A stretch of 40,000 nt of DNA, from positions 532,520 through 572,519 of the forward strand of contig CAWJHX010000009.1 of the NCBI GenBank assembly GCA_963842825.1. The letters are read 5' to 3'. Origin of the DNA: Terriglobia bacterium. Its GTDB lineage: Bacteria; Acidobacteriota; Terriglobia; Bryobacterales; Bryobacteraceae. A program made the position numbers and the translations under genes. How positions within the stretch are numbered: position 1 is the first letter of the stretch; the number at the start of each line of letters is the position of its first letter. Below the pieces are notes generated by a model, which saw nothing but the letters and a program-made list of their open reading frames with translations, did not search any database and was not told the DNA's origin. Of this stretch, positions 7,750-30,281 are shown piece after piece.

Positions 7750-7763
7750 GTCAATGCGGTCGG
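7750..7763. repeat. Left copy of the 14-bp direct repeat GTCAATGCGGTCGG (putative target-site duplication of the casposon)
   Basis: Identical 14-mer at 24743..24756 in the same orientation. Each copy directly abuts the outer end of a terminal inverted repeat. Confidence 0.85.
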
Positions 7764-7799
7764 GGGTTAGGAGATAGAGGGTTTTGAAACCGCACCCCC
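7764..7799 (+). repeat. Left terminal inverted repeat (TIR-L) of the casposon
   Basis: GGGTTAGGAGATAGAGGGTTTTGAAACCGCACCCCC. The reverse complement of 24707..24742 is GGGTTAGGAGATAGAGGGGTTTGAAACCGCACCCCC, so 35/36 positions are identical. This also explains the shared peptide GCGFK(T/P)LYLLT in spurious ORFs 7738..8118(-) and 24637..24927(+). Confidence 0.9.
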
Positions 7800-8111
7800 T
7801 ATCTAACCGCGCGGTGCTCCATGTTTGTCGTGGCGACGCCGCGCCGCGATTTTGTGGGTGCAGCGTTGCGTAGCCGTCGGGTCTTGGATGAAACCGTGTC
7901 GGCTGTGAAGCCGAGAAAACACGGCTCTGCTGATTTAATTTAGTGCAGGGTGGAATAGCCCGCCGTAGCAGACCTTGCCGGTGACGCTCCTGTGGAAGCT
8001 GGTGTACTGGCCGCCACAGGCAACTTCTCCGGTCACGCCTTCGTGATAGCTGGTGTGACGGGCCAGAGATAAAGGACCAGAGGCGCGGCACACGTTTTAT
8101 ACTTTGGGGAA

Positions 8112-8624
8112 ATGCCAATTGACGCCTGCACCAGTACTTTCGCAGAGATGGCCGCGAGCATCCTGCCGGGTGATATGGCGAGGCTCCGGGCGGCTCTAGC
8201 TACACCGGTTCCAATGTCTTCGTTTTGTGAACATGGGTTCGGCGTCAAATCCATCGTTGCAAAGTTGCGACGAAGTACAGATTTTTCAGGGTGCTATGTG
8301 CTGCTGCGGGAAGGAAAGCCGTTCTACGTTGGCATTTCACGAACCGTGGTTCAACGACTTCGCCAACATGTGACAGGAAAAACCCATTTCGACGCAAGTC
8401 TTGCCTACCTAATGGCGACCGATAAAACAGGCCACAAAATGAAACGGGCCGATGCCATGCTAGACCCTGTCTTCCGCACGGCCTTCGATCAAGCCAAGGC
8501 GCTGCTTCGAGATTGCAGTGCCGCGTTTATCGACATCGAAAACCCTCTCGAACTCTACCTGTTTGAAGCCTACTGCGCGATGGAGTTGGACACCTGCGAG
8601 TGGAACACGTTTCGGACCCATTGA
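8112..8624 (+). CDS. GIY-YIG nuclease superfamily-like protein (casposon cargo)
   Basis: GCYVLLREGKPFYVGISRTVVQRLRQH matches the GIY...YVG...R...H pattern. A downstream conserved Glu is plausible in LELYLFEAYCAMEL. The true start is uncertain, since several in-frame Met codons lie downstream of 8112. Confidence 0.5.
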   Translation: MPIDACTSTFAEMAASILPGDMARLRAALATPVPMSSFCEHGFGVKSIVAKLRRSTDFSGCYVLLREGKPFYVGISRTVVQRLRQHVTGKTHFDASLAYLMATDKTGHKMKRADAMLDPVFRTAFDQAKALLRDCSAAFIDIENPLELYLFEAYCAMELDTCEWNTFRTH

Positions 8625-8770
8625 TCGGCACTGGTTGCGCAAAGGACCCTTTGTGAGACACAACAAATTAGGTGGAGGACTTCGGAATCTGACTTAATCG
8701 ATAATCAAAGCATTCTCGAACAACCGCTAAATCCACCGCACAACTGTCACGCGGGGGAAGGAGTGAATTT

Positions 8771-9574
8771 ATGGGGGATGAGCGACTGCCTACACCAACA
8801 ACGCCGGTCGACCCCATTGCGGATGACGACCCCGTAAAGCTGCATCTTGAGGAGCGCGCTCAGCTCATCGACGCGGCCAGAGAGAACGCGCGAACGTTCG
8901 ACAAGGCTGTACTGACATTTGGCTCAGCCGTTTTCGGCTTCTCTATCGCATTCCTAAAGGATGTAGCCCCTCATCCTGCGCCCGGCACTCTGTGGTGGTT
9001 GGGTGGCGCATGGGCATCTTTCTCATTCGGTTTACTCAGCATACTTACGTCATTTCTCTGTGGCCAACAAGCTTTTCAGTTTGAAATTACCGAAAGTACC
9101 AACGCTCTGGCCCCAGGGTATCAGCGCAAAAAGAATCGCTGGAGTACGGCGGCCCAGTGCGGCAATGTTCTTTGCGTTGTGTTTCTCTTCTTTGGATTGC
9201 TGTGTTGGTCAAAGTTTGCATTTGATAACCTTAGCCGTGTAGACACCACGGCGACTACGGTTCAGACCCCGGTGGGAAAAGAGGGGCCAAAGGAAGGCGC
9301 ATTGAAACCTACGAAAGATACTTCAGACACTTTACCACTCAAAAAAACGTACACACCACCCCGAACACCGCCACCGCCTAACAGGCTGTTGAAGAATATT
9401 GGCGAGCTGAGCAGGAGAGCGTTCTTAGGGGCGAAGAAAGAGTTTCCGAGGGCGTGGGCAGGGGTTTCAGCGCCTGAGGAAGAGCCTCAGGCGGCGGCCT
9501 GGCGGCCTTTTACGCAGCCGCTTCCATCAGATTACGGATTCGGATCATATTATAGGCAGCGGCGGCGAAGGTGA
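8771..9574 (+). CDS. Membrane protein with proline-rich C-terminal tail; 3' end interrupted by IS insertion at 9381/9382 (reading frame continues into the IS)
   Basis: GGAAGGAG RBS upstream of the ATG at 8771. Predicted TM segments: VLTFGSAVFGFSIAFL, WWLGGAWASFSFGLLSILTSFL and NVLCVVFLFFGLLCW. From 9382 onward the translated sequence (NRLLKNIGELS...) is IS-derived. Removing the IS and one CTAA copy restores ...TYTPPRTPPPPKRNPPPPPSQKP*, ending at 10691. Confidence 0.6.
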   Translation: MGDERLPTPTTPVDPIADDDPVKLHLEERAQLIDAARENARTFDKAVLTFGSAVFGFSIAFLKDVAPHPAPGTLWWLGGAWASFSFGLLSILTSFLCGQQAFQFEITESTNALAPGYQRKKNRWSTAAQCGNVLCVVFLFFGLLCWSKFAFDNLSRVDTTATTVQTPVGKEGPKEGALKPTKDTSDTLPLKKTYTPPRTPPPPNRLLKNIGELSRRAFLGAKKEFPRAWAGVSAPEEEPQAAAWRPFTQPLPSDYGFGSYYRQRRRR

Positions 9575-10647
9575 ACATCCAAGCGACTCTGTCGCGGCCT
9601 CGATGCCTGGTCTTGCGAAGCCCCGCCGTGGTCTTGATCCAGCCGAATACCTGTTCGACTAACTTACGCTTCTTCTGACTCGCCCGATATCCATCGTGCC
9701 GCGTGGTGCGGACATCGATGCGGCTCCGCCGCCGGGTGTTGTTCTGCGCGATGTGCGGAGTTACGGCCCACTGTCGCAGACCTTCTACAAACGCACTGGT
9801 GTCATAACCCTTGTCCGCGCCCAACGTCACGCGCCGCCGATGGCCCGGAAGCCGAGCCGCCATCACCAGCGCCGCATCCCGCTCGGCTCGTCCGTTTGCT
9901 TCGGTGAGTTCGGCATCCACCGCCAGGCCATGCCGATTGTCGATGATCACATGACCGAGATACGCCATCTGCGCTTCCTTTCCGCTGCTCTTGCGATAGA
10001 GCTTCGCTTCCGGATCGGTGGTCGATTGATGCGTATCGTTGCGGCGTTTCTGTCCGCGGAATCCGCCCTCGCCATTCGTGTCGTCATCCGAGCCACCGTC
10101 TTTCGGACGGAAGCTCTTGTGCGATGCCCAGGCCTCGATCAGCGTGCCATCGACCGTGAAGTGTTCGTTGGAGAGCAACCGTAACGCGCGGGCTTGTTCC
10201 ACCACGCAAGAGAATAGTTCCTGCGCCACATCGCCCGCCAGCAGCCGTTCGCGATTCTTCGAAAACACCGCATGATTCCATGCCGGCTCGGTCATGTTCA
10301 ATCCCACGAACCACCGGAACAACAGGTTGTATTCCAGTTGCTCGACCAGCATTCGCTCGCTGCGAATCGAGTACAACGCCTGCAGCAACAGGGCGCGCAG
10401 TAATCTTTCCGGTGCAATCGAGGGACGTCCCGCTTTCGCGTACATCTCATCAAAGCGCCTCGACATCGATTCCAGCGCCGCATCCACCATGGCCCGCAGC
10501 GGACGCAACGGATGCTCTTGCGGCACCCGCTCCTCCAGCGTCCCGTATAGAAATAGCTCGTTATCTTGCCGATCGTCTCCGCGCATGATTGTAGGGCGTC
10601 GCCACTTTCCTTCAGGTCACAGCGATAAAGTGTTTTTCAACATTCTG
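9382..10647 (-). mobile_element. IS5-family insertion sequence nested in the casposon
   Basis: Single DDE transposase ORF. Imperfect terminal IRs: CAGGCTGTTGAAGAATA (left) versus CAGAATGTTGAAAAACA (reverse complement of the right end), 13/17 identical. Flanked by a 4-bp direct repeat CTAA (9378..9381 and 10648..10651), which matches the YTAR target duplication known for IS5-group elements. Confidence 0.75.
9510..10586 (-). CDS. IS5-family DDE transposase (InsH-like N-terminal DUF772 domain + DDE_Tnp_1)
   Basis: The sequence HPLRPLRAMVDAALESMSRRFDEMYAKAGRPSIAPERLLRALLLQALYSIRSERMLVEQLEYNLLFRWFVGL is a textbook IS5/IS1182-type transposase N-terminus. The C-terminal DDE region includes ...LGADKGYDT... 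and ...VEQVFGWIK. Confidence 0.9.
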   Translation of the reverse strand: MRGDDRQDNELFLYGTLEERVPQEHPLRPLRAMVDAALESMSRRFDEMYAKAGRPSIAPERLLRALLLQALYSIRSERMLVEQLEYNLLFRWFVGLNMTEPAWNHAVFSKNRERLLAGDVAQELFSCVVEQARALRLLSNEHFTVDGTLIEAWASHKSFRPKDGGSDDDTNGEGGFRGQKRRNDTHQSTTDPEAKLYRKSSGKEAQMAYLGHVIIDNRHGLAVDAELTEANGRAERDAALVMAARLPGHRRRVTLGADKGYDTSAFVEGLRQWAVTPHIAQNNTRRRSRIDVRTTRHDGYRASQKKRKLVEQVFGWIKTTAGLRKTRHRGRDRVAWMFTFAAAAYNMIRIRNLMEAAA

Positions 10648-10726
10648 CTAAACGCAATCCACCGCCACCACCACCTTCCCAAAAGCCGTAAGGTAGAAAC
10701 AGCACTCAAGGGCGAAACACACTCTT

Positions 10727-10859
10727 ATGAAAACCACGAACGATACCCCTGGCAAGTTGCCGCTAAAAGAGACCTACACGCCGCCACGGACGCCGCCACC
10801 ATCACCGAGACGGGCTCCTCCTACTCCTCCTCCCCCACCGCCACCATCTAAGAAAACTT
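10727..10859 (+). CDS. Small proline-rich ORF paralogous to the C-terminal tail of the 8771 gene
   Basis: Manual translation (below the track size cutoff): MKTTNDTPGKLPLKETYTPPRTPPPSPRRAPPTPPPPPPPSKKT*. It shares LPLK(K/E)TYTPPRTPPP with the 8771 product, but with many synonymous nucleotide differences. Coding status is uncertain. Confidence 0.3.
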
Positions 10860-11150
10860 AGTCGGTCACCTCGATGAACGGTCGAGGAAAACTCGCGGCA
10901 CGGCTCCGCCGCGAAAAACGGGCGAGCGAAGGACTCCTTTATGGAATGCGAGGATGTTGCGTGAGGAGCGTGGCGGCTCGGACGCGGCGAAGCTGGGCGG
11001 CTCAACGCCTTCTAAACGACTAGACTACTACATAAGAGCCTCGGACGATCGACAGCCAACGACGGGCGTTTCGCAAGGATAAGTTGAAACCTCGCCGGAA
11101 GACCAAGAAGCAAGCCCCCGCCCTGAGATTCAGGTAGCGATGTGAGGCAA

Positions 11151-14084
11151 TCATCTGTGAATGCCTTCCAACAAATTCCAGCGCCGAATTCCGCCTTTCG
11201 CGTCGCCAGAGATGGCGCTGTGTTGATCGGGACACCAGTCAACATCGCGTACATCAGCAGTATGGCCTTCTAAGATCCGAAGGCACTGCCGCGTCTCGAC
11301 GTCCCATTGCCGCACAGTGTTGTCTGCGGAGCCGGAGAGAGCGTGGCGACCGTCGGCAGCCCACGCCAGCGTCACTACATACTCAATGTGACCTTCGAAG
11401 GTGCGCAAGCATTGTTCCGTTTCAACATCCCAAAGCCGCAAAGAGCCGTCCTCAGAACTGGAAAGAAAGCGGGATTGATCCGGACTCCACTTCACACAAT
11501 ACACGGGAGAGTCATGGCCTCTGAAAATTCGCAGGCATTGGTGCGTCTCGACGTCCCATAGCCGCACGGTGTTGTCTTCGGAGCTAGAGAGTACGCGAGA
11601 CTGATCCGCATTCCATTCCGCGCTCGTAACTGTGTCAGTGTGTCCTTCAAGAACCCCAACGCAGCTTCCCATCTCAACGTTCCAAAGTCGCACGCTGTGG
11701 TCACAAGAGCCGGAACAGGCGTAGCGCTGATCACGGCTCCAAGCGACACTCCAGACTTGTTCTGTATGACCTTCGAGAATGCGCAAGCATAGACCCGTAT
11801 TGACGTCCCATAGCCTTACGGTATGATCATCAGCCGCAGACAACGCGGAACATCGGTCGTTGCTCCAGGCAACACATTCAACAGGTTTTGTATGCCCTTC
11901 GAATAGACGTAGGCAGTGCCCTGTTTCCAAGTCCCATAGCCGCACGGTCTTGTCCCGACCTCCCGTTAGAGCCCGTCTTGAATCCGGGCTGAATGCGTAG
12001 CAATAGAAGGGGCCCTTATCCGCGAGTTGGATGGCTTTGTTGATAAGCCCTTCCGGTGCCGTCGATGGTTCGAATGTCGTTGAGCGCTGAGTGGGGTCTT
12101 CGGCAACTGACTCGCGGCTGGCCCCCCACTTGTCGTGAGTGGTAGCGCCGAAGGAGAGCCGATTTTGAGTTCTTATGAACGTGAGCCGAGCCGAGCTTCG
12201 AAACCACCATTGACCGTCGGCATCCCTATACGTGACGCTGACGGTAATGCAATAATCTGGACCTCCATATATTCCACCGCCACCAGACTTCGAATCAGCT
12301 TCGGCGAAAGCCGCTGGCAGGTTCCATTTTTGCCCCGCTATCGCAAGCCCCGAATAACCTTCCAGCCACACCAAGGCAAATCCGGCCCTGCCTTTATCGA
12401 TCCGTGCAATTGTCTCGGCAGCGGCTCTCACCGATGGCGCAATCTCAAATCCCTCTATCGTTACGTCGTACGCCACTGTGCCATCGTTCACCAGATAAAA
12501 CCCGGCTTGGCCCGAACGTATTGGCACAGGGTGTTCCTCTGGGATTTCACCCCACTCGCGAAAGACAATTCGAGGACGCTTAGAAGGCGGGCGTGATCGG
12601 TTTTCTGTTGGATGATTGGATAAGAAATTGACTTGAGACGCCCCGCGCGGACGAAAGATTCCTTGGGGCAGAGCTCGCAAGAGCGCAAAAAATAGAGAAG
12701 CAGCTGTATTGCAAGCATAGTTTGTCCATGCTGGGTCTCTCCTGAACCCTACGACATCGCTAATGCCACGAATAGCTAGGATTGGGTATTCCTTATCCAT
12801 CCGCCGCGCTGCGGCGTAGACGCCCGAAAGCTCCATCTCAACAGCCACCAGATCACGTGCCGCTTGGCTCCACTGTTGGATGGTTACAGTATCTTTGATG
12901 AGGTGGCCGCTGGACGCGATCGAGCGAGCGGTTACAATCGGGTGTTCCCGCCTAGCCATCGATCCGAAGCGGGCATTGAGGGCTTCCTGAACTTTCTGCT
13001 TCCACTCCTTGGAACCGTAAAACCTATCGGGACTTGTATCAACGTCCGGACGCGGGAGTTGAATATGAGCTTCCGTGTTCCAATCCTCTAATGGCAAGGC
13101 ACGGAACGAAGCGATGAGGTCTTGTACCGCCTTGTTCATCGGGCCGCCTTGGTTGGCTAACTCCGGGTTTGTGCCTTCTATAAGCGCACTAACCGTAAAA
13201 TCGTGCAATCGATTTGCTACGACGACATCTCCCAATGTGAATTCAGTGTTTGGGATAGCGCCGCCAATACCGACGAGGGCCAGCCAGTGTGGGCTTAGGT
13301 CCTCGATGATATCGCGGGCTGCATCCTGCCCCGCATTGGGACCCTGTTCGATGGCTCGCAGGACAGCGACACGGTAGGAATCGCCGTTCTGACTAGATAC
13401 CGTTCCAATGACATATGTCCGGTGTTTAAGTCTGATGACGTTTTGTTCTGGTAGGCGACTCAAGACAGCATCGTATTCATCCTCTCGAACCGTGATGACC
13501 GCAATGTCTATTGGCGTTGGCTTGCCATACGCACCGCCAGTGTCATCACTTGGATGGCCCGGACGAACATAGAATTTGGAGGAGGGTTCACGCAAGGTCT
13601 CTTCGTTCGACTCACCCGCGTTGAATGAAGGCGTATTTTGGGCGGAAGAACTGATTGAGGGTGCCGGTATTAGACGTTTATAACCTTCGCCAATCCAGTG
13701 ACCGATCCGCTGTTGAATGACATGAAACTGCTGATCCCCCGGCATCGGTTGAAGTATTTCCGGTGGACATCCGAGGTAGTCTTGCCAAGCTTGGCGCCCG
13801 AGTGCGTTTGCCAGCGTCATGAATGCCTCTTGAGACTCCATGTTTCCTACGAGCTCAAGATAAGCTGTGGCGCGAATGTCGAGCTGGCGTAACACCACTT
13901 CGAGTCGAGCTGGAGTTGCCCACCGCTTTTCCTCCTCGGTGAGACTATCCACAAGCTGATTGGTGTCATTGATTATTCGAACCTGGGCAGCAGGAAACCC
14001 TGGATTGCGCTTTAGAATGTTCTCTGCTCTTTCTATAGCTTGCTGACGGGCGCGAGCGGCACGCCTCTCATGTCGCGTCATCAT
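11151..14084 (-). CDS. Multidomain protein: N-terminal helical region + PNP_UDP_1 nucleoside phosphorylase/nucleosidase-like domain + beta-rich linker + 7-bladed WD40 propeller (candidate conflict/defence effector; casposon cargo)
   Basis: Phosphorylase-superfamily signatures: ALVGIGGAIP, VAVEMELSGVYAAARR and ILAIRGISDVVG (about aa 195-470). Seven very regular ~42-aa WD40 units (GHTxxVxxVAWSxDxxxxLSxSxDxTVRLWDVETGQCLRxxE) span about aa 690-977. I found no Walker A/P-loop between them. Confidence 0.8.
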   Translation of the reverse strand: MMTRHERRAARARQQAIERAENILKRNPGFPAAQVRIINDTNQLVDSLTEEEKRWATPARLEVVLRQLDIRATAYLELVGNMESQEAFMTLANALGRQAWQDYLGCPPEILQPMPGDQQFHVIQQRIGHWIGEGYKRLIPAPSISSSAQNTPSFNAGESNEETLREPSSKFYVRPGHPSDDTGGAYGKPTPIDIAVITVREDEYDAVLSRLPEQNVIRLKHRTYVIGTVSSQNGDSYRVAVLRAIEQGPNAGQDAARDIIEDLSPHWLALVGIGGAIPNTEFTLGDVVVANRLHDFTVSALIEGTNPELANQGGPMNKAVQDLIASFRALPLEDWNTEAHIQLPRPDVDTSPDRFYGSKEWKQKVQEALNARFGSMARREHPIVTARSIASSGHLIKDTVTIQQWSQAARDLVAVEMELSGVYAAARRMDKEYPILAIRGISDVVGFRRDPAWTNYACNTAASLFFALLRALPQGIFRPRGASQVNFLSNHPTENRSRPPSKRPRIVFREWGEIPEEHPVPIRSGQAGFYLVNDGTVAYDVTIEGFEIAPSVRAAAETIARIDKGRAGFALVWLEGYSGLAIAGQKWNLPAAFAEADSKSGGGGIYGGPDYCITVSVTYRDADGQWWFRSSARLTFIRTQNRLSFGATTHDKWGASRESVAEDPTQRSTTFEPSTAPEGLINKAIQLADKGPFYCYAFSPDSRRALTGGRDKTVRLWDLETGHCLRLFEGHTKPVECVAWSNDRCSALSAADDHTVRLWDVNTGLCLRILEGHTEQVWSVAWSRDQRYACSGSCDHSVRLWNVEMGSCVGVLEGHTDTVTSAEWNADQSRVLSSSEDNTVRLWDVETHQCLRIFRGHDSPVYCVKWSPDQSRFLSSSEDGSLRLWDVETEQCLRTFEGHIEYVVTLAWAADGRHALSGSADNTVRQWDVETRQCLRILEGHTADVRDVDWCPDQHSAISGDAKGGIRRWNLLEGIHR

Positions 14085-14383
14085 TCCTCTTTTGTCAGAA
14101 CGAGAGGGTTACGACGGTGTCTGAAGATTCGCACCGAAACACTCTCGTGTGTCACACCTTTCAGCTAGGAAACTATTTTAGCGATTTGGCTATCTTTGAG
14201 CACAGCGAAGCCGGAGCCGCTGGAGCAAGCCGATGGCTGGTTTGCCCAAAACATTTCCACGGGCCCCCGGCGCATTTCCTCTCCGGATGGCATTCGTAGC
14301 CACACTTCCGTACGAAGATGACCAAAAAGCAATCTGAGTCTCCATTTAAATTGCGGGAAACATCGCGGTCTTCGACCAGTGAA

Positions 14384-16000
14384 TTATCGAATAACCTCCC
14401 GTTCAACTGGTGCGGGCTCCATTTCCGGATATCTTAAGATTCCGGTCAGTTCCGCCAGCTTCACCCAATGCCTCGGATGCGGAATTCGCTTGCCATTGCG
14501 AACGTTCGCAGCGTACGGCAGAGAAACGCCGAGCACCGATGCGATAGACGACCTCGTAACCGTCGCAAGCAATGGCACGATCTTGGCCCTATAAACATCT
14601 TCGTTCAACCAGGTGGGCAAGCTGGCCGCGTCCCAGTTCTTGGCAGCAGCAACATTCTTGCGCAGAGTAGCAGCGCGCCGGCTTTGAGCATCCGAAGAAT
14701 GTGCAACTGAGCGACCTTTCACGGCTGCAACTTTCATATGCTCTGTTGCGACGATCATCCCGCATGACTTGCAGTGTTCCGTTCCCCGGCGCGTTGTCTT
14801 TCCGCAAATGCGGCAAACGCCGTCCGGAAAGATTGGCCTAATCGAGGCATCGTCGAAACTGCTACCTTTCACGATCCGCTTCTGTTCTTGAGTCAGGCGT
14901 GTTGGTGTGGACCTGTAGCGCGCGTGTTTCGGACCTTTTGACCACAATGCCCGCGCCACATATTCCGCCAGCGGAGCTATTGCGCGACGCCACGTTTGTG
15001 CGGTTTCCGAAAGTAGCGCCGCGAGCGGTGCCATCAGGCGGCAGTTCCCATCGCTCTGCTCGAAAAACCATTCCCGCCTGAGCGGTTCGCGAGCGATCCA
15101 GTTCAACACGAAAGCGTCAACCTGAGGGCGAACCGGCTCCATCAGATCTGCAGGCAGACTATCGCGATGGGTAGCGTCCGCGTGCATAAAGCCAAGGCAC
15201 GGATCGAGACCTAGCATTGCCGTGGCGAGGCGGGCCTCGGCCTCCAGGATTGCGTAAAGGTAGTTCAGCATCGCATTGGCGGGATTCGATGCAAGTCGCG
15301 GTGATCCGGAAAGCGGAGATCTGCGGGCGCGAAACGTCCTCCAGTGATCCGGCATGCATTGCAAGTCCCTCTGCGGAAATTGAATCTGCACGTCTCGCCA
15401 CGCTCCCCAATATGCCGCGCCTGCTTGGGATTCAAGCAAACGGATCGAATCGAAAGCGCTCAGCGACGGAATCTCTGAACGAAGGCGGGCGATTGCATCT
15501 GCCGCGACCGGATTTCGAAGGTGTGAGCGCGCGATCTCTTCCTGACCTAGGAGTTTCCTGGTAATCAAATCGCGCGTGATTTGAATTCCGATGCCAGATT
15601 GCCGCGCGAGCGCCTGGGCGCGCCTGAGGTGGACTTCGGATTTCCGAACCGGCCCTGTAACGGTCAGAATCTTACCATCCCTTTCTAGCATGACGAACGC
15701 CGCGTTTTGATCCGCAAGCCAGCGCAACGCGGCCAGCGAAACCATTCCATCGTGACCAATGACCACGAGCCTTTCGAGCCCGTGAGCGACGCGCGGTAAT
15801 CGGGCGTAGCGACGATCAGCCGCGATGCCATCTTCCAGAATCAAATGGCCACTATCGACACGGACTTGAATTCCGTAGCCGAAAAGCGTTATGACGCCGT
15901 GGCGGGGTGTGATTGCTAATTGGGGATTTGCGGCCAGAATTTCTGGCACGTTGGATTTGCGCAGGCGTAGCCGATGCGCTACGGTTTTCGTAGCTGCCAT
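14384..16000 (-). CDS. cas1: Cas1-family integrase (casposase) with C-terminal zinc ribbon and HTH extension
   Basis: Cas1 N-terminal beta domain: GVITLFGYGIQVRVDSGHLILEDG...LERLVVIGHDGMVSLAALRWLADQNAAFVMLERDGKIL. Catalytic alpha domain: SNPANAMLNYLYAILEAEARLATAMLGLDPCLGFMHADATHRDSLPADLMEPVRPQVD (Glu / His / Asp-Glu triad context). C-terminal CRICGKTTRRGTEHCKSCG and an HTH-like SSIASVLGVSLPYAANVRNGKRIPHPRHW. GGAGGG RBS upstream of the ATG at 16000. No cas2 gene or repeat array in the window. Confidence 0.9.
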   Translation of the reverse strand: MAATKTVAHRLRLRKSNVPEILAANPQLAITPRHGVITLFGYGIQVRVDSGHLILEDGIAADRRYARLPRVAHGLERLVVIGHDGMVSLAALRWLADQNAAFVMLERDGKILTVTGPVRKSEVHLRRAQALARQSGIGIQITRDLITRKLLGQEEIARSHLRNPVAADAIARLRSEIPSLSAFDSIRLLESQAGAAYWGAWRDVQIQFPQRDLQCMPDHWRTFRARRSPLSGSPRLASNPANAMLNYLYAILEAEARLATAMLGLDPCLGFMHADATHRDSLPADLMEPVRPQVDAFVLNWIAREPLRREWFFEQSDGNCRLMAPLAALLSETAQTWRRAIAPLAEYVARALWSKGPKHARYRSTPTRLTQEQKRIVKGSSFDDASIRPIFPDGVCRICGKTTRRGTEHCKSCGMIVATEHMKVAAVKGRSVAHSSDAQSRRAATLRKNVAAAKNWDAASLPTWLNEDVYRAKIVPLLATVTRSSIASVLGVSLPYAANVRNGKRIPHPRHWVKLAELTGILRYPEMEPAPVEREVIR

Positions 16001-17380: not shown

Positions 17381-17899
17381 ATGCCAAAGAAAATGCCCCA
17401 ACGAGATCCCATCAGTGCCTCCCAGCGAAAATCTGCCGCCGCTCGGCGTGTAGGGAAGAACGCACAGTGCACGCACTGCGGTGAAACGCGGCCTGAAGCC
17501 CTGATCGCGAATAGCAAACCACTCACATGCGCGGAATGCCAACGGAGGAGCCAAGGGAAATCGATCATAGATGATCACCACGTCGCCATGCGGGCAAACA
17601 ATCCGACGACGATGCCGGTTCCCGTGAACGATCACCGCGCCGAACTCAGCGCCGCCCAACATGATTGGCCCAAAAAGACGCGGGAGAATCCCGATGGCAG
17701 TCCGCTCATCGCCGCTGCCGGGTGTATTCGCGGATTCATGGACCAGCTTTTCTACTTGGTTGAAAAATTCTTGCACTGGACTGCTGGGATGCTTGAAGAC
17801 CTCGATTCTTACCTAATCGAAAAACTGGGGCCACAGTGGTGGTTACAGACTCCGCTGAAACAATTCGCGCCCCACGGAGGCTGCGATGCCAAATCCTAA
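17381..17899 (+). CDS. Zn-finger / HNH-like nuclease protein
   Basis: CTHCGE...(x19)...CAECQRR, followed by IIDDHHVAMRANNPTTMPVPVNDHRAEL (an H-N-H-like arrangement). It overlaps the PolB start by 14 nt. Confidence 0.5.
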   Translation: MPKKMPQRDPISASQRKSAAARRVGKNAQCTHCGETRPEALIANSKPLTCAECQRRSQGKSIIDDHHVAMRANNPTTMPVPVNDHRAELSAAQHDWPKKTRENPDGSPLIAAAGCIRGFMDQLFYLVEKFLHWTAGMLEDLDSYLIEKLGPQWWLQTPLKQFAPHGGCDAKS

Positions 17900-20800
17900 G
17901 CCAACTCCGTTGACGCTTGCCCTTCGGGTCTATCCCGAGCCCACGAACGCCAAGCGGGAACCGGCATCGCCCAAGCCATGGAAGTGCCCAAAGGCGATGC
18001 TCGTTTTTGACACCGAGACGCGGACCGACGCGACGCAACGCTTGACCTTTGGAAGCTACCGCTATTTTCATGAAGGCCGGTGCCTCGAAGAGGGCTTGTT
18101 CTACGCTGACGATTTGCCGGAAAAAGACCGTCGAGTTCTCGAAGAATACGTCGCAACGCACAGGCCTGAGACGGCTGGTGACGGCGTGCGGAATCTGAAG
18201 TTTCTTTCGCGCAGCCAGTTCGTTGACAAGTTCTATAGCTCCGTCTATAAGGGCCGTTGTCTTCTGGTTGGCTTCAATCTTCCCTTTGATCTCTCGCGCA
18301 TCGCCTGCGACTTCACAACCGCGCGCGGTCGCTTCGCGGGTGGTTTCTCCCTCGGCTTTTGGCTGTGGACGGATAAGACGGGCCGCGAGCGGGGGGATCA
18401 TTTCAGGCCCAGAATTGGGATCAAGCACATTGACAGCAAGCGCGCGCTGAAAGGTTTCACTGCGCGGAACGGCCCTGATCAAACGGACTTGATTCCAGAA
18501 GATTGCGAGACCGGGAGCCCCCAGAAGGGCTATAAGTTTCGGGGGCACTTCTTGGATCTGCGCACGCTGGCATTTGCGCTGACGGATAAGGGCTATTCTC
18601 TTGAGGCGGCTTGCGAAGCCTTCGGAGTGGAGCACGGAAAGCAGAAAGTCGCCAAGCATGGCGAGGTCACGGAAGAATACATCGACTACAATAGGCGCGA
18701 CGTTTTGGCCACTTCCGAACTCGCGGTGAAGCTCCTTGAAGAATACGACAAGCATCCAATCACGCTTCAGGCGACGAAGGCATATTCCCCGGCCTCCATC
18801 GGCAAGGCCTACTTGCGGGCGATGGGAATCGTGCCAATCCTGGAACGGCAACCGGGCTTCCCGAAGGAGTATCTCGGATACGCGCAGTCGGCCTTCTTTG
18901 GCGGACGAACGAGCGCACATATTCGAAAGCTTGCGGTCCCTGTTGTTTACACGGATTTTCTTTCGATGTATCCCACGGTAAACAGTCTCATGGATCTATG
19001 GCGCTTCGTTACTGCGCGTGAGATTCGGATCGTGAAGAACTGCAAGCGGGAGACCGAAGCATTCCTGGGCCGCGTGACCGTCGACGATCTTTTCAAGCCC
19101 GCCACGTGGAAATACCTGCCCGCGTTCGTCCGCATAATCCCGGACGGCGACATCCTGCCGACGCGCGCGAAATACAGCACCGTGAGCAACGATTGGCAGG
19201 TGGCCGTGAATCATGTGTATGCCGACAAGGACAGTTCGATCAATCAGGAACTGTGGTTTTCGCTTCCGGATATTGTTGCTTCGGTAATTCTGACGGGGCA
19301 AGTTCCCAAGATCGTGGATGCGTTCCGGATTGAGCCGAAAGGTAAAATGCAGGGGCTTACTCCAACCAAGCTGCGCGGATCGATTGAGATTGATCCAACG
19401 CGTCAAGACTTCTTCAAAGTGGCGATTGAAGAACGGAAACGCCTGCATTCGCACGCCGATCTTCCCGAAGCCGAAAAGAAGCGGCTCGACAAGGCCCTCA
19501 AGGTGCTGGCGAATGCCGCAAGCTACGGCATTTACGCCGAAATGAATCCTCAGGAGACGGATGAAAAGACGCAGGTAACGTGCCACGGCGTCGACTGCGA
19601 ACCGTTCACGTGCCGTGTTGCCCATCCCGACGTGCCGGGCGAATATTGCTTTCCGCCGCTTGCATCCTTAATAACAGGGGCAGCGCGTCTCATGTTGGCG
19701 CTGTTGGAACATTGCGTCTCGGCTTTGAATGGCACATACGCGATGGAGGACACCGATTCCATGGCGATTGTCGCGACCAAACGCGGCGGATTGGTGCCCT
19801 GTCCGGGAGGGTCCTTCAAGACCAAAGACGGTCGACCGGCGGTGAAAGCGCTCTCCTGGAAGCAGGTTGAAGAAATCTCGGAACGATTCGCGGCGCTGAA
19901 CCCGTACAATCGCGAAGCGGTGCCAGGATCAGTTCTCAAGATCGAAGAGGATAATTTTGATGCAAAAACAGGTCATCAGCGACAGCTCTCCTGCTTTGCA
20001 ATCTCGGCGAAGCGTTACACGCTATTCACGCTCGACAAGAGTGGTGAGCCCGTGATGCTGCGAAAGGAAGCCAACAACAAAAGTGACCGCTGGTCTCAGC
20101 ATGGCCTCGGGCATCTTTTGAATCCAACTGACACAAGCAGCGCGGATCGGGATTGGATCGGGCAAGTGTGGCTGAACATGTTGCGCAGATCTTATCGTCT
20201 GCCCGTTCAAAAGCTCAGTTTCGAAAAGTTACCCGCTGTTGGCCGCGTCAGTGTGGGCAGTCCCGCCACAATGCGCTCTTTTTCGAGTTTCAACGCTGGG
20301 AAGGCGTATTCCCAGCAAATTAAGCCCTTCAACTTTGTTCTGACTTGCCAAGTAAAGCAGCTTGGACATCCCAACGGCGTCGATCCAGAACATTTTCATC
20401 TGATCGCGCCGTCCGATGGCGAACCCGGCCGGTGGATCGAGACGGATTGGATCGACCAATATACCGGCAACCTATACAGGATCACAACCCAGGGTCACTA
20501 CGGAAGCCAAGATGCTGCGCGTGTAAAAACGTACGGCGAGATTCTGCGCGAATACGAATTTCATCCGGAGGCAAAGTGCGCCGACCAAGACGGAAATGCC
20601 TGCGAAAGGCGTGCGACTGGTTTGCTTCAACGAAGGCACGTCATAATTGACGGCATACGATTCATTGGAAAAGAATCGAATGCTCTGGAAGACGTTGAGG
20701 CCGGGCTGGTTCACTCCGCAGAAAGTGCCTACACCGAATACTGCGATCCGAAATACGACGAATGGACTACGAAAATCGCACCTGCATTGAAGAAAGCTCC

Positions 20801-20951
20801 GCTCTCGGTGCTGATCAAGCAAACGGGTCTTTCGCGCCGGGCGTTGATCAGTCTGCGCGTGGGTGACAGCAGGCCGCGCCGGAAGAACTGGGAACTAATC
20901 GCCGAAATACTCCGAAAACTTGGCGCTATCGGAAATTCGCGGCAGTCCTGA
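17886..20951 (+). CDS. polB: Family B DNA polymerase with 3'-5' exonuclease domain (casposon PolB)
   Basis: ExoI is LVFDTETRTD (FDTET at 18006-18020). ExoII is GFNLPFDLSRI and ExoIII is YIDYNRRDVLAT. Pol motif A is DFLSMYPT (18954-18977), motif B is KVLANAASYGIYAE (19500-19541) and motif C is YAMEDTDSMAIV (19737-19772). The protein is 1021 aa. Confidence 0.9.
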   Translation: MPNPKPTPLTLALRVYPEPTNAKREPASPKPWKCPKAMLVFDTETRTDATQRLTFGSYRYFHEGRCLEEGLFYADDLPEKDRRVLEEYVATHRPETAGDGVRNLKFLSRSQFVDKFYSSVYKGRCLLVGFNLPFDLSRIACDFTTARGRFAGGFSLGFWLWTDKTGRERGDHFRPRIGIKHIDSKRALKGFTARNGPDQTDLIPEDCETGSPQKGYKFRGHFLDLRTLAFALTDKGYSLEAACEAFGVEHGKQKVAKHGEVTEEYIDYNRRDVLATSELAVKLLEEYDKHPITLQATKAYSPASIGKAYLRAMGIVPILERQPGFPKEYLGYAQSAFFGGRTSAHIRKLAVPVVYTDFLSMYPTVNSLMDLWRFVTAREIRIVKNCKRETEAFLGRVTVDDLFKPATWKYLPAFVRIIPDGDILPTRAKYSTVSNDWQVAVNHVYADKDSSINQELWFSLPDIVASVILTGQVPKIVDAFRIEPKGKMQGLTPTKLRGSIEIDPTRQDFFKVAIEERKRLHSHADLPEAEKKRLDKALKVLANAASYGIYAEMNPQETDEKTQVTCHGVDCEPFTCRVAHPDVPGEYCFPPLASLITGAARLMLALLEHCVSALNGTYAMEDTDSMAIVATKRGGLVPCPGGSFKTKDGRPAVKALSWKQVEEISERFAALNPYNREAVPGSVLKIEEDNFDAKTGHQRQLSCFAISAKRYTLFTLDKSGEPVMLRKEANNKSDRWSQHGLGHLLNPTDTSSADRDWIGQVWLNMLRRSYRLPVQKLSFEKLPAVGRVSVGSPATMRSFSSFNAGKAYSQQIKPFNFVLTCQVKQLGHPNGVDPEHFHLIAPSDGEPGRWIETDWIDQYTGNLYRITTQGHYGSQDAARVKTYGEILREYEFHPEAKCADQDGNACERRATGLLQRRHVIIDGIRFIGKESNALEDVEAGLVHSAESAYTEYCDPKYDEWTTKIAPALKKAPLSVLIKQTGLSRRALISLRVGDSRPRRKNWELIAEILRKLGAIGNSRQS

Positions 20952-21365
20952 GCCGCGCGGAGACGCCGAAAGCTTTCCACCGTGACATAACGGCGGATTC
21001 TCGGCGGAAACATCGGACGGCCCTGGGTATATGCTGGTCGGAAGAACGTGCTTCGGCTGGGACTAATCCGCTGGCTTCTCCTCTACCTCCTCGCAGCGGC
21101 CGGGTCTGTTCGCCTGCTGGCCGGGAGACGGGTCTGGGATTTCAAGACGAACAGGGAGGTGGTGTCGTGGCAGCTCAGATTTATAACTTACTCGACCACG
21201 CTCGATGGGGACGGTTTCAATCGGGACAGAAAACCCATCCCGTGCGCGATCTCGCCGGACGGTGAATACGTTGTTGAGGGTGGCGACGGAAAGTATGTTA
21301 TCGTCTACGACCGAACGAGGTCGCGACGAGAGGAGATTTCGAGGTTCTGCGCGAAAGCGGCGGAC

Positions 21366-21563
21366 CTATCTCTTTGTGCTTCGCTTCTTCCCGCGCTTCG
21401 CTTCCGCAAGAGCGGCCGCAATCGGGCCACGGTCTCTCTTCGGGGTCTTCGGGTCGCGCAGGTCTTTGCCAGCCTGCGAGGCAACTTTCTTGGAAGTCGG
21501 CATGCCCTCATTATACACCCAATAAATCATTTCCATACGTTCCTGTTTGTACTTCAGGCCCAT
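21366..21563 (-). CDS. Small basic hypothetical protein (65 aa)
   Basis: MGLKYKQERMEMIYWVYNEGMPTSKKVASQAGKDLRDPKTPKRDRGPIAAALAEAKRGKKRSTKR. The codon pattern looks more coding-like than the Arg/Leu/Ser-rich antisense half of ORF 21048..21602. There is no obvious RBS. Confidence 0.3.
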   Translation of the reverse strand: MGLKYKQERMEMIYWVYNEGMPTSKKVASQAGKDLRDPKTPKRDRGPIAAALAEAKRGKKRSTKR

Positions 21564-21610
21564 AAGGGACGTTATGTTGCTCTAAACTTGGAAAGGAGGT
21601 AGTCTCCTTT

Positions 21611-22327
21611 TTGATGAACAACCTCCCGAACAGCCCACCGGCCGGAGACACCTGCTACGCATGTGAGCGACGGGCCACCACGAGGGAACACGCGCCACCA
21701 AAAAGCTTTTTCCCGATGGAAAAACGCAAGAATTTAATTGTCGTTCCATCCTGCTCGGTCCACAATTGCGATAACTCTCCGGATGTCGAATACGTTCGAA
21801 ACGCAATCGCGTTTCTCGCGGGCCTAAACGGAACTGGCGAATTATTGATCGACACCGCAAAGCGATCGTTCGATCACAGTCCCGCCCTGTTTAAGCGGAC
21901 GTTTCAATCCTTCGTTGTCCATTCCCAAGAAGAACAAGTGGGCACATACAAGGCCGACCTACCACGGGTTAGAACAGTAATGACAGCGGTGGCCCAGGCG
22001 CTCCATTATCGAGATCAGCATCAAAAGTGGGGCCGTTGGCACGTGTTCGTACCGAGCCTCGGGTCAGAGGCATCGTTAATTCACAAACGCTCTGATGGCT
22101 GGGAAGCGTTCAGGGACTTATTAAGCCGCATCCCCTATGTAGATCAGCCCACGGCTGAACCGGAAGTCTTCAGATACGGAAGCCACGCACTTGATTGGGG
22201 CTGGATATATCAGTTCACCTTCTACGGCGGCTTCGTCGTCAATGCGTGGATGCTTCGCGAAGACGCTGATGACCCATATGCCACAGCAACCGAAACGAGA
22301 CACCCAGAGCGCGCGCCAAACCAATGA
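21611..22327 (+). CDS. HNH (beta-beta-alpha-Me)-like N-terminal domain protein (casposon cargo)
   Basis: CYACERRATTREHAPPKSFF...NLIVVPSCSVHN fits a CxxC...EH...N...CxxHN HNH-type finger. AAAGGAGG RBS at 21592-21599. The start is the TTG at 21611 or the ATG at 21614. The C-terminal ~170 aa are unassigned. Confidence 0.45.
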   Translation: MMNNLPNSPPAGDTCYACERRATTREHAPPKSFFPMEKRKNLIVVPSCSVHNCDNSPDVEYVRNAIAFLAGLNGTGELLIDTAKRSFDHSPALFKRTFQSFVVHSQEEQVGTYKADLPRVRTVMTAVAQALHYRDQHQKWGRWHVFVPSLGSEASLIHKRSDGWEAFRDLLSRIPYVDQPTAEPEVFRYGSHALDWGWIYQFTFYGGFVVNAWMLREDADDPYATATETRHPERAPNQ

Positions 22328-22523
22328 ACGAGGTGTCATTCACCCGAGGGCACGGTGACCCCGAGCTTCCGGCACTCATACAGCCGCTTTTCATGCGATC
22401 CATTTCGCACTAGACATTTGCAACATGCGAGACCCTTTGTTTTCGGGCCTTCGGCGAACGTTGCAAAACTTACCCTTTGCGAAACATGACACGGCCAAGC
22501 CCTTCCCGAGGAATGGTGATTCC

Positions 22524-24620
22524 TCACCTATTCTCATTAGGGGTCAACACCCGGATTCGATTGTGGTCGGTCAAGTAAACTACGCCACGAGCGTCTACCG
22601 CTACACTGTTTGGAAAAATCGGTGCCTTGAGCGCGGGCCCACCGTCCCCAGAGAATCCTGTTTCATGATTTCCGGCTATGGTGTGAATGATTCCATCTCG
22701 CGTTATTTTGCGTATACGCCAATTGGCGCGATCTGCGATGTAGACATTCCCTTGGGTGTCGATAGCCAGCGAATCTGGATCGCCCAATCCAGCCTTGACA
22801 GCGGGCCCATCATCTCCACTAAATTCCTGCTTACCGATACCAGCTACGGTGCGAACAATACCATCTCGATCCAGCCTCCGAATGCGGTGGTTGAAGGTGT
22901 CCGCTACGTAAAGGAGGCCCTCACGGTCTATGGCCACACCGTGTGGGAAATCCAACCTGATAGAACGAGCCGGTCCGTCTCCGCTAGGACCCTTCTCACC
23001 GTTTCCGATTATCGTGCGTATGATTCCTTGCGGATCGATCTGGCGAACACGATTGTTCTCCCGATCCGCAAAATATACATCGCCCTGGGCATCAACAGCC
23101 AACCCCATAGGATTCGCTAGCTCTGCCGTCAACGCTGGTCCGTTATCCCCCGCAAATCCCTTCTTGCCAGTCCCGGCGATTGTTTGAATGCGACCGTCAG
23201 CCGATACCTTCCGGATTCGATTGTTCAAGGAATCGGAAATGTAGACGTTCCCTCGGAGATCTGCTGCGACCCCACTGGGATTGTCGATGTTGGCCTCAAC
23301 AGCCGGTCCTCCGTCTCCACTGAACTGCGGGGGTGGACCAGTCCCCTCCATTCTGATTGTCGGGATGCCCTTGCCCGCGATTCTGGAAAAGCGCCCATCG
23401 CGAGTGATGCGCACGATACGATTCCTCCCCGTGTCGGCGATCAAGATGTCCCCCGATGGACCGACGGCGACGCTCCAAGGATTCAACAGTCGCGCCAACT
23501 CGGCGGGACCGCCTTCTTTTTCCTCGGGCAAGGCGCTCAAACCGGCGACCACAGTTACCGCGCCGCCGGGTGCCATTCGCAGCACACGGTGACCGAGGGT
23601 ATCAGCCACGTAGATTGTGCCCTTTTCGTCGACGACAACATCGGCTGGGGAATGGAGGCCCGTTTTGAGCGGGTCGCCGTCTTCCACAATTGGACCGTTC
23701 TTTGCACCCAGAAGCGTGGTGATGATTCCATTTCCGTCAACCTGCCTAATGTTCCCGGCGGCAATAAGTAGATTGCCCTGTGGATTAAAGGCGACCGCCA
23801 TCGGGTAGAAAACGACAGCAGCTAACGCGGAGCCACCGTCGCCGGTTGACGGCGCACCTCGATTTACACCTTCGCCTGCGATGGTCGTTACTGTCCGCGA
23901 TGGGTCAATTCTGGCGGTCCGCGCATGGTTTCGATCTGCAATGTAAATGGCTCCATCCGGACCCAAAGCGATACCTCGGGGACTCGCCAAAGGGCTTACC
24001 GGATTGCGCGGTCCCACTCCTGGTTGTCCCACGACGCTCGTGATAACTCCGTCGGTGTTTATCTTGCGAACGGTATTGTTCATGCTCTCCGTGAAGTAGA
24101 GAACATCCGAGCGGTCGATGGCAATGCCATTCGGCCAGGAAAGCTTTGCCTTTGCTGCTGGCCCGCCATCGCCATCATAGCCGTGCTCTCCCGTTCCGGC
24201 GAACGTCGAAATGATTCCGTCCGGAGTGACGCGACGAACGCGGTGGTTCATGGTATCGGCAATATACAAGTTACCGTGTGAATCGAGCGCGATACCTCTT
24301 GGGAACAATAGCTGCGCCTGGATTGCAGGCCCTCCGTCCCCTCCGTATCCCTGCGCACCGTTGCCCGCGATAGTTCTGATTCGCCCCGACGCGTCAACGA
24401 CCCGCACGACCTGGTTCCCGGTATCGGCGATGTACAGGTCTCCATCGCGACGGAGCGCCAGCCCTCCAGGCTTGTTTAGCCTGGCTTGGGTCGCTGGACC
24501 ACCATCGCCGGTGTAGCCATCGAGTGTCGATCCTGCGCCAGTGAGCGTAGTGATTGTGTACGTACCTTGACCCAGGAGCGCGGAGGCAAACACAACCAGC
24601 CATAATGGTCTAAGGCTCAT
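22524..24620 (-). CDS. Secreted NHL-repeat protein (GDGGPA-motif repeats, probably two six-bladed propellers); casposon cargo next to TIR-R
   Basis: Start placed at the ATG at 24620 (MSLRPLWLVVFASALLGQG signal peptide). The track ORF start at 24722 lies inside the TIR. There are more than 10 repeats of the pattern GDGGPAxxAxLxxPxGxAxDxxGNLYIADxxNxRIRxV. Confidence 0.8.
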   Translation of the reverse strand: MSLRPLWLVVFASALLGQGTYTITTLTGAGSTLDGYTGDGGPATQARLNKPGGLALRRDGDLYIADTGNQVVRVVDASGRIRTIAGNGAQGYGGDGGPAIQAQLLFPRGIALDSHGNLYIADTMNHRVRRVTPDGIISTFAGTGEHGYDGDGGPAAKAKLSWPNGIAIDRSDVLYFTESMNNTVRKINTDGVITSVVGQPGVGPRNPVSPLASPRGIALGPDGAIYIADRNHARTARIDPSRTVTTIAGEGVNRGAPSTGDGGSALAAVVFYPMAVAFNPQGNLLIAAGNIRQVDGNGIITTLLGAKNGPIVEDGDPLKTGLHSPADVVVDEKGTIYVADTLGHRVLRMAPGGAVTVVAGLSALPEEKEGGPAELARLLNPWSVAVGPSGDILIADTGRNRIVRITRDGRFSRIAGKGIPTIRMEGTGPPPQFSGDGGPAVEANIDNPSGVAADLRGNVYISDSLNNRIRKVSADGRIQTIAGTGKKGFAGDNGPALTAELANPMGLAVDAQGDVYFADRENNRVRQIDPQGIIRTIIGNGEKGPSGDGPARSIRLDFPHGVAIDREGLLYVADTFNHRIRRLDRDGIVRTVAGIGKQEFSGDDGPAVKAGLGDPDSLAIDTQGNVYIADRANWRIRKITRDGIIHTIAGNHETGFSGDGGPALKAPIFPNSVAVDARGVVYLTDHNRIRVLTPNENR

Positions 24621-24706
24621 CGAACACCAGCCCCCTTTGGGAACATCTTTCTGCCCTATTCTACTTTGCCGGACACACGGGTGGGTCCGACGACTAAAGA
24701 GTGTGG

Positions 24707-24742
24707 GGGGGTGCGGTTTCAAACCCCTCTATCTCCTAACCC
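24707..24742 (-). repeat. Right terminal inverted repeat (TIR-R) of the casposon
   Basis: The reverse complement matches TIR-L at 35/36 positions (see 7764..7799). Confidence 0.9.
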
Positions 24743-24756
24743 GTCAATGCGGTCGG
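24743..24756. repeat. Right copy of the 14-bp direct repeat GTCAATGCGGTCGG (putative TSD)
   Basis: Identical to 7750..7763, and it abuts TIR-R. Confidence 0.85.
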
Positions 24757-30266: not shown

Positions 30267-30281
30267 ATCGAGGTGGCTCGA

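Follow-up and report, generated by a model that had tools for sequence, protein, structure and literature searches.

We analyzed a 40,000-nucleotide stretch of the genome of a Terriglobia bacterium (contig CAWJHX010000009.1; hereafter the window), in which an element of 16,979 bp, from position 7764 to 24742, is very probably a casposon, i.e., a self-synthesizing transposon with a Cas1 homologue as integrase, of the bacterial family-3 lineage. The element encodes a Cas1 protein of the casposase clade with its catalytic residues and a family-B DNA polymerase (PolB), it is bounded by terminal inverted repeats (TIRs) and a target-site duplication (TSD), it holds no rival integrase, and it is polymorphic in presence and orientation at this locus. 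Judged by sequence comparison, it is one of a large group of casposons in soil Acidobacteriota, without an earlier report in the literature searched. Its insertion site, as those of most relatives whose targets could be read, overlaps the -35 box of a predicted sigma-70-type promoter at a fixed position.

The TIRs of the element are 36 bp long (GGGTTAGGAGATAGAGGGTTTTGAAACCGCACCCCC at the left end), and the two copies are identical at 35 of 36 positions, the exception being position 18, with T in one copy and G in the other. Even with up to three mismatches allowed, this 36-mer matches only twice in the window, and no match was found in 100 shuffles. Directly outside both TIRs lies the 14-mer GTCAATGCGGTCGG, perfect and in direct orientation, and the bases bordering it differ at both sides, which sets the length of the duplication at exactly 14 bp. 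The GC content is 55.6% within the element and 60.8% and 59.1% in the flanks. The inverted repeats, the duplication and the lower inner GC that a first-pass annotation had read from the letters alone were thus all borne out. Its concern that the 36-mer could belong to a dispersed repeat family was also dispelled, as a scan of the JGI metagenome contigs with the first 27 bases of the TIR, one position being left free, returned only three contigs, all of them ends of related but different casposons.

The predicted integrase matches the Cas1 family (PF01867) with E = 8.7e-40. The intact catalytic context previously ascribed to it was confirmed by comparison with 35 relatives, in which residues E190, D285 and E288 never vary and the conservation of H273 is at least 90%. 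An alignment with the Cas1 of A. fulgidus (4n06) places the catalytic residues on its active-site motifs. When the protein was compared by blastp with the reference Cas1 alignment of Krupovic et al. 2014 (Additional file 2), the highest scores were obtained with family-3 casposases (AceAut-C1, 217 bits and 45% identity; S. spinosa, 212 bits; StrAlb-C1, 167; NitAL212-C1, 157; HenMar-C1, 122), against 80-107 bits for family 2, 65 for family 1 and at most 59 for CRISPR Cas1 proteins. In a simple distance tree (neighbour-joining, 26 sequences, 100 bootstraps), the acidobacterial Cas1 proteins form a clade with 99% bootstrap, which is sister to AceAut-C1 (74%) and lies within family 3 (86%), in such a way that the nesting inside CRISPR-associated clades that had been considered as a refutation was not seen. 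The fusion of Cas1 to a C-terminal zinc finger and a helix-turn-helix (HTH) domain is likewise found in the AceAut-C1 protein (PMC4046053). The HTH of the acidobacterial casposase gave weak matches to the XRE-type HTH_3 and HTH_31 and none to Sigma70_r4, and the idea that it mimics sigma region 4 found no support.

The polymerase is highly divergent in sequence, its match to PF03175 reaching 26.2 bits, barely over the cut-off, and sequence searches of the PDB, plasmids and phages gave nothing useful. By contrast with those searches, an AlphaFold2 model built with 60 homologues (pLDDT 76.9, pTM 0.74) matched family-B polymerases only, both in the PDB and in the BFVD, with E values down to 2e-14. 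The residues of the Exo I-III and Pol A/B/C motifs are invariant or almost so in 41 relatives, supporting that the gene encodes a family-B polymerase with all its motifs, as the first-pass annotation had it. One point here weighs against the assignment to family 3, as described with a PolB of the RNA-primed type (PMC4046053, PMC4779613): the acidobacterial polymerase leans towards the protein-primed PolBs, in a comparison that included no reference casposon PolBs. PF03175, the protein-primed type, was matched by 31 of the 41 relatives and PF00136 by none, and the top BFVD matches of the model are the protein-primed enzymes of His1, GA-1 and tectiviruses; those in the PDB are mixed (phi29, Pol alpha, African swine fever virus and archaeal PolBs). 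As a separate observation, the nearest polymerases (83% identical) are paired with Cas1 proteins just 58-68% identical (P0005/P0024/P0121, P0014/P0122, P0015/P0123), the pairing being read from contigs of equal size and confirmed for that of 67,979 bp. This mismatch suggests an exchange of modules between casposon lineages, or very unequal rates of change.

The generic NCBIfam Cas1 model (TIGR00287) passes its cut-off for the casposase, relatives of the protein are annotated as "CRISPR-associated endonuclease Cas1" by JGI, and a DDE transposase is encoded inside the element, which might lead one to take the locus for a degenerate remnant of a CRISPR-Cas adaptation module, or for an island moved by another enzyme, such as an IS5 transposase, with incidental inverted repeats. 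This explanation is extremely improbable. No subtype-specific NCBIfam Cas1 model passes (the best ones, I-C and I-D, scored 93.6 and 86.7, each with a cut-off of 385), no array was detected in the 40-kb window by a search for tandem arrays with CRISPR periodicity, and Pfam scans of its open reading frames (ORFs) of at least 100 amino acids (aa) found no Cas2 domain and no tyrosine or serine recombinase. The earlier statement on the absence of all these was therefore right, but it had passed over a nested insertion sequence (IS) of the IS5 family, around positions 9382-10647. This IS carries the sole DDE transposase, and it is a discrete insertion of 1.27 kb with its own ends and a (C)TAA duplication at its flanks, missing from the casposon of a second contig described below. 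In addition, the Cas1 lies inside the casposase clade, and its linkage to PolB, along with the TIRs and TSDs, is seen again in dozens of genomes. The element is no pipolin either, as a recombinase is absent and the ends consist of inverted repeats with a TSD.

The mobility of the element was studied by comparison with other contigs. When the Cas1 protein was looked up by exact match, two such contigs came up, named here L001 and L002. L002 is identical to the window across 11.4 kb, the right junction included. L001, an 86-kb ENA contig, carries a casposon 99.93% identical between the same flanking genes and with the same 14-bp TSD, in inverted orientation, in such a way that the TIR with G at position 18 and the end with the NHL-repeat gene face the cytochrome c gene. 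The polymerase ORF is split in L001, which may be a sequencing error, as this is maybe a long-read assembly. The insertion is intergenic, between divergently transcribed genes, and the flank proteins are named as cytochrome c of Terriglobia or Bryobacteraceae. No identical record was found for the protein encoded at the left flank. Through a homologue (91% identical) of the flanking cytochrome c protein we reached L086, a relative around 83% identical in which the flanking genes are adjacent, with a single copy of GTCAACGCGGGTGC, the same promoter and no casposon. The same gene content devoid of TIRs and TSD was not seen, since L001, the sole other full carrier, has the same TIRs and TSD. The difference in orientation and the empty site lend support to the recent integration proposed earlier, and on these comparisons the element is recently active or mobile.

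Several data tell against this reading. Between the window (6507-7763 and 24743-28251) and L001, identity is 100% over the 170-300 bp, approximately, beside the element and in some blocks further away, while the rest is 70-92% identical, and patches of 89-93% identity are found in the left part of the element; these mosaic flanks would reflect either recombination among strains or a chimeric assembly. The inversion in L001 could have been produced by recombination within the outermost 17 bp of the TIRs. The empty site of L086 differs by an intergenic indel of around 390 bp, in a relative only around 83% identical, and the exact 24-mer of the reconstructed junction found no match in the JGI metagenome contigs, so the check proposed for an empty site succeeded with a homologous one and failed with the exact one.

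Having these data in mind, it is possible, though we consider it doubtful, that the orientation of L001 comes from the inversion of one ancestral insertion by recombination between its TIRs, spread afterwards by homologous recombination of the flanks, in which case this locus would give no sign of recent transposition. The same alternative was proposed by Krupovic et al. for M. mazei (PMC4779613), and it fits flanks that are 100% identical beside the element and 70-90% identical further out, as well as the divergent patches within it. It would require, however, a crossover confined to the outer 17 bp, as the TIR mismatch stays with its own internal end in L001. Moreover, both orientations are found at unrelated promoters across the family, and this, together with the empty site of L086, supports that insertion did occur, and in either orientation. 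Recent mobility is thus the reading that we prefer.

Relatives of the element were searched in one genome per GTDB species and found in at least 305 species-level genomes, and the best 80 of the 305 loci, taken as regions of around 21 kb, were compared in detail. Almost all of these 80 belong to metagenome-assembled genomes (MAGs) of Acidobacteriota (Terriglobia, Bryobacterales, Acidobacteriaceae, Acidiferrales). PolB lies beside Cas1 in 73 of them, and TIRs were resolved in 31, with lengths of 36-502 bp and GGG(G/A)TAG at their start, and these ends, with their A-rich tract, are similar to the TIRs published for families 2 and 3; the TSD is 14 bp long in all resolved loci but L054, where it has 15 bp. 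At the protein level, database relatives of the Cas1 number in the thousands; hundreds of them are full length at 55-69% identity, and those at E <= 1e-30 form 1087 clusters at 50% identity. A full-text literature search combining casposons or casposases with Acidobacteria returned no paper beyond two incidental mentions. The first-pass remark that casposons were not known from this phylum is consistent with that search; its companion, that bacterial casposons are rare, does not agree with the number of genomes found. One locus, L080, is unlike the others in being titled as a Candidatus Micrarchaeota archaeon MAG, likely by a binning error.

The insertion site itself was then compared with the surrounding genes. 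The cytochrome c gene at the left of the element (6329-7705, minus strand, ATG at 7705) has a predicted promoter with its -10 box 21 nt upstream of the start codon, and the first five bases of its -35 box fall within the duplicated 14-mer, an overlap that had escaped the first-pass annotation. A consensus scan of positions 7500-8100 found one promoter-like site only, which is this same one, and the promoter is also kept at the empty site of L086. Since the bases of the -35 box are duplicated with the 14-mer, the host promoter would survive the insertion.

A similar arrangement was detected in the relatives. Of the 35 distinct sites, 32 have a TSD with TTGAC at its end (TTGTC in two of them), or with GTCAA at its start when read in the other orientation. 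Once oriented, the host flank reads TTGAC(C/T/A), 17-18 nt, and then TAnnnT (mostly TAnACT), with the cut after the fifth base of the -35 box. Among 26 sites, 24 have a TAnnnT at 17-18 bp; of the 260 other TTGAC motifs present in these host flanks, 8 have it (Fisher p = 6e-26), a background that is mostly coding DNA and in which the expected rate of -10 boxes is lower than in intergenic DNA. Three sites added later also fit, giving a total of 27 out of 29. By sequence, the 26 targets group into 24 unrelated clusters, and the genes downstream of them include those for ValRS (valS), ThrRS (thrS), nuoB, a thiolase, rodZ, a rhomboid protease, a radical-SAM enzyme and an FAD oxidoreductase. These data support that the target is a sigma-70-type promoter, as predicted by consensus. 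Regarding orientation, the elements show no bias with respect to the promoter (same direction in 12 and opposite in 16 of 28 junctions).

Two other possibilities were tried and discarded. ARAGORN detected no tRNA gene in the window and a single one in 30 loci, around 100 bp from the site of L050, and Rfam gave no match in the window or in six related loci, so that a tRNA target in the style of family 2 was rejected. A hybrid promoter directed into the element, formed by the distal TTGAC and the TIR, was set aside on reading the TIRs of the delimited elements, whose positions 19-24 are other than TAnnnT (GTTTGA in the window).

Many of these sites appear to have been used more than once. A casposon TIR of another sequence type, solo or of a remnant, directly follows the promoter-distal TSD in 18 of 26 sites (L029, L033, L056, L059, L079, L036, L068 and others). 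On the promoter-proximal side the promoter core was found at every site, the inner one of two apparently nested elements in L040 being the exception. In L029 (2135-21365) the order is promoter, TSD, a casposon of 16.1 kb, TSD, a remnant of 3.1 kb with its own TIRs, and a TSD with one mismatch (GTTAAGAAACGCCC). Such a third copy was found only in L029 among the fetched 21-kb loci, where most neighbouring elements run past the fetched DNA. L083 shows a TIR, 14 bp ending in TTGAC, and another TIR. Outside this set, a forest metagenome contig (ERZ1759591 AH_forest_Scaff2153799; L089/L090) contains at 905-29714 two full casposons in tandem, with three identical 14-mers, GGCGAGTCGATGTT, between them and at their outer ends, inserted around 10 nt upstream of a start codon; their PolB is 83% identical to that of the window and the TIR starts with GGGTTAGGAGATAAGGGG. 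One of the two carries genes for a reverse transcriptase (RVT_1) and a Fic protein as cargo. These arrays fit a repeated use of the promoter-proximal copy of the target, with a polarity that is read from the arrangement itself.

Some observations do not agree with a promoter as the target. In L077 the cut lies 5 bp further upstream of TTGAC, in L034 the -35 box is degenerate (TTGCT), and the AH_forest casposons, the nearest ones by PolB and TIR, share a TSD without the promoter geometry; moreover, all the promoters are consensus predictions. What was found is a regularity, which may come from a direct reading of the promoter by the casposase, from a guidance by RNA polymerase or from selection. 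In the last case, the casposase would read a short motif, e.g., (G)GGTCAA, placed at one extremity of the 14 bp, or would integrate loosely, and the insertions that survive would be those just upstream of a -35 box, which interrupt no gene and preserve the promoter. We regard this explanation as possible and rather unlikely. A short motif has a precedent in M. mazei, whose targets have only CGCA in common, at the edge of the TSD (PMC4779613), and the three exceptions mentioned above, as well as the mostly coding background of the comparison, speak in its favor. However, selection for a harmless intergenic insertion would in itself call for neither a correctly spaced -10 box nor a fixed cut in the -35 box, and the former is found at exactly 17-18 bp in 27 of 29 sites. 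Besides, the casposases already characterized do read a leader adjoining the TSD, those of families 1 and 2 requiring it together with motifs inside the TSD (PMC6614799, PMC8464041). With about even confidence, we propose that the acidobacterial clade of family 3 actively recognizes sigma-70-type promoters, directly or through bound RNA polymerase, at a fixed position of the -35 box, and that each promoter-proximal entry would push older copies upstream, where they would decay to solo TIRs.

By analogy with the archaeal casposases, we infer a mechanism in which the casposase, with its Cas1 core, zinc ribbon and HTH, would bind both TIRs and transfer the 3' ends (...CTAACCC-3'). These would be joined to both strands of the target at points 14 bp from each other, and gap repair would then produce the 14-bp duplication; the element would be copied by its own family-B polymerase. 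One cut would fall after the fifth base of the -35 box (between TTGAC and the following base) of a sigma-70-type promoter and the other 14 bp upstream, in such a way that the promoter core, formed by the 17-18-bp spacer and the -10 box, would replace the "leader" read by archaeal casposases and by the CRISPR Cas1-Cas2 complex. On one side of the element the preserved promoter would drive the cytochrome c gene. Either orientation of the element would be used, and repeated strikes on one promoter would leave tandem or remnant casposons on its distal side.

Table 1. Features of the casposon and of its insertion site in the window.
Feature	Positions	Strand	Remarks
Predicted sigma-70-type promoter of the cytochrome c gene	7726-7754	-	-35 TTGACT (7754 to 7749), 17-nt spacer, -10 TAAACT (7731 to 7726)
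TSD, left copy (GTCAATGCGGTCGG)	7750-7763	+	Adjoins the promoter
Left TIR	7764-7799	+	36 bp; holds a small palindrome, GGTTT-n-AAACC
GIY-YIG nuclease-domain protein, cargo	8112-8624	+	170 aa; PF01541, E = 7.7e-5; weak PADLOC matches to UzuA and PDC-S14
Predicted membrane protein, cargo	8771-9381	+	3' part replaced by the IS5; mechanical ORF extends to 9574; homologue uninterrupted in L001
Nested IS of the IS5 family	~9382-10647	-	Transposase at 9510-10586; PF05598, PF01609; NF033581, 287 bits
PNP_UDP_1 protein with seven WD40 repeats, cargo	11151-14084	-	977 aa; PF01048, E = 3e-13; MTA/SAH nucleosidase-like
Casposase (Cas1)	14384-16000	-	538 aa; Cas1 core ~40-323, CxxC...CxxC zinc ribbon 396-413, C-terminal HTH ~480-521
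192-aa protein	16101-16679	-	Found only in the window element and in L001/L002
Basic protein	16826-17380	+	184 aa; conserved beside PolB in related casposons, 33-53% identity
Cys-rich HNH-like protein	17381-17899	+	172 aa; conserved directly upstream of PolB in the subgroup with 58-69%-identical PolB
Family-B DNA polymerase	17886-20951	+	1021 aa; intact
Two cargo ORFs	21048-22327	+	184 aa and 238 aa; the latter with CxxC and His motifs
Secreted NHL-repeat beta-propeller, cargo	22524-24620	-	698 aa from the Met preceding the signal peptide; NHL, E = 2.9e-63
Right TIR	24707-24742	-	Inverted copy of the left TIR
TSD, right copy	24743-24756	+	Promoter-distal

The other genes of the element are listed in Table 1, and those of its cargo are not common to related casposons. 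The 977-aa protein with PNP and WD40 domains matches PDC-M60C and a PN-superfamily effector in PADLOC, which makes it a candidate defence protein. The basic protein of 184 aa encoded near PolB may be an accessory DNA-binding protein. Regarding the HNH-like proteins reported in the first-pass annotation, the Cys and His motifs were indeed present in the ORFs of 172 and 238 aa, but profiles gave no support: the 172-aa, Cys/His-rich ORF had no HNH match in Pfam, NCBIfam or PADLOC, and profile searches with the 238-aa one were equally unproductive. Each copy of the casposon bears a different IS, the IS5 at 9382-10647 in the window and an IS630-like one (DDE_3) at 12605-13657 in L001, within the PNP-WD40 gene, and neither of them is found in the other copy.

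At the right of the element, the divergent beta-propeller gene at 24940-26187 has a promoter-like sequence (AGGACA-17-TATACT) at 24845-24873, around 90 bp past the right TSD, whose -10 region is kept in L086, so that the casposon sits between two divergent predicted promoters, touching neither. Further on, the region 29300-31700 contains two genes in tandem for IS200-like Y1 transposases (29721-30266 and 30273-30986; PF01797) among direct repeats of 300 nt, 97% identical, and inverted repeats of 36-56 nt (CCGGGGACGGAGGAGACGTTCCCCAGGTTTTGAG), and it may be a system of the REP/RAYT type.

We compared the element with the casposons already described, from which it differs in the host phylum and in the predicted promoter target, and probably also in the type of polymerase. 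The casposase families besides family 2 are little known (PMC8464041). With those of family 3 (AceAut-C1, from a fosmid of Ca. "Acetothermum autotrophicum", and NitAL212-C1, from Nitrosomonas sp. AL212), the element shares its Cas1 grouping, the C-terminal zinc finger and HTH fused to Cas1 as in AceAut-C1, a PolB with a small gene for a Cys-rich, perhaps HNH-like protein alongside, and a variable, heterogeneous cargo. The 14.4-kb NitAL212-C1 also has a TIR of around 36 bp starting with GGGGTA, a 14-bp TSD and an intergenic location. The published members of the family differ in their hosts (Actinobacteria, Alpha- and Betaproteobacteria and Ca. Acetothermum) and in their TSDs (AGCCGGTACTGCCC, CCCCCCCCCGTATGAGG and T), which lack TTGAC, whereas the acidobacterial target is a predicted -35 box; they are described with a PolB of the RNA-primed type, and they are a handful, the acidobacterial clade being far larger.

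With family 2 (AciBoo-C1 of Aciduliprofundum boonei and the elements of Methanosarcina mazei), the likeness is found in the TSD of 14-15 bp, in the C-terminal HTH of the casposase and in TIR ends that read GGG(G/T)A.. and continue with an A-rich tract, e.g., GGGTAATAGTTATCCCGAAAAAATGCC in MetFor-C1. A short invariant motif occupies one edge of the TSD in both groups, CGCA in M. mazei and GTCAA in the acidobacterial elements, and tandem arrays, solo TIRs and both orientations at one target, reported for M. mazei by Krupovic et al. (PMC4779613), are common to them. By contrast, the family-2 Cas1 proteins are 24-28% identical to the acidobacterial ones, their hosts are archaea, and their targets are the 3' ends of tRNA genes, an elongation-factor gene and particular intergenic sites, with no promoters among them.

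The CRISPR Cas1-Cas2 complex has a homologous integrase, whose staggered attack also duplicates a sequence of fixed length, next to a "leader" close to a transcription start; in both systems inserts are repeated and the older ones would lie further from the leader, as suggested for the casposons by L029 and by the 18 of 26 sites with a second TIR, with a polarity deduced from their order. Unlike it, the casposon has no Cas2, and the insert is an autonomous transposon of 12-20 kb instead of a spacer of around 30 bp. Pipolins and Polintons share with the casposon the family-B polymerase and a variable, partly defence-like cargo, but the former use tyrosine recombinases, with tRNA-derived direct repeats, and the latter an integrase of the retroviral type, and neither enzyme was found in the window.

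Transposon Tn7, at attTn7 downstream of glmS, and the yeast elements Ty1 and Ty3, upstream of genes transcribed by RNA polymerase III, are examples of targeting to a safe harbour or to the transcription machinery. As in these cases, the acidobacterial casposons would occupy a non-disruptive and conserved position set by a signal for host gene expression, at a site that is reused; the transposases are unrelated (DDE versus Cas1), and RNA polymerase or a sigma factor is no more than a possible participant in the case of the casposon. A comparison between casposons and Tn7 had already been drawn (PMC4046053).

With these data, the casposon superfamily gains a bacterial phylum and hundreds of species-level genomes, having in mind that the reference set of a comparative study of 2024 comprised 48 casposons (PMC11551731), and natural evidence is provided for the recent mobility of a family-3 casposon. 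Because casposases pass the generic Cas1 models and carry CRISPR labels, surveys of soil in which cas1 serves as a marker for CRISPR (e.g., PMC7305122) may count acidobacterial casposons. With the -35 box of housekeeping promoters as a short, universal and non-disruptive target, the spread of these elements across the phylum would be explained, and target recognition by a Cas1-family integrase could be tested with simple promoter variants. An integrase of this kind, with a defined stagger of 14 bp and a compact DNA address, may also be of interest as a tool for the insertion of large cargos. The arrangement of a promoter or leader, a 14-bp repeat and tandem inserts is relevant to the model in which CRISPR arrays derive from casposon ends and target duplications. 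If the active recognition of promoters were true, this would be the first Cas1-family integrase directed at a general transcription signal, and the acidobacterial sites would represent natural leader-repeat-insert-repeat arrays made by a solo Cas1, the closest living analogue of the proposed transition from casposons to CRISPR.

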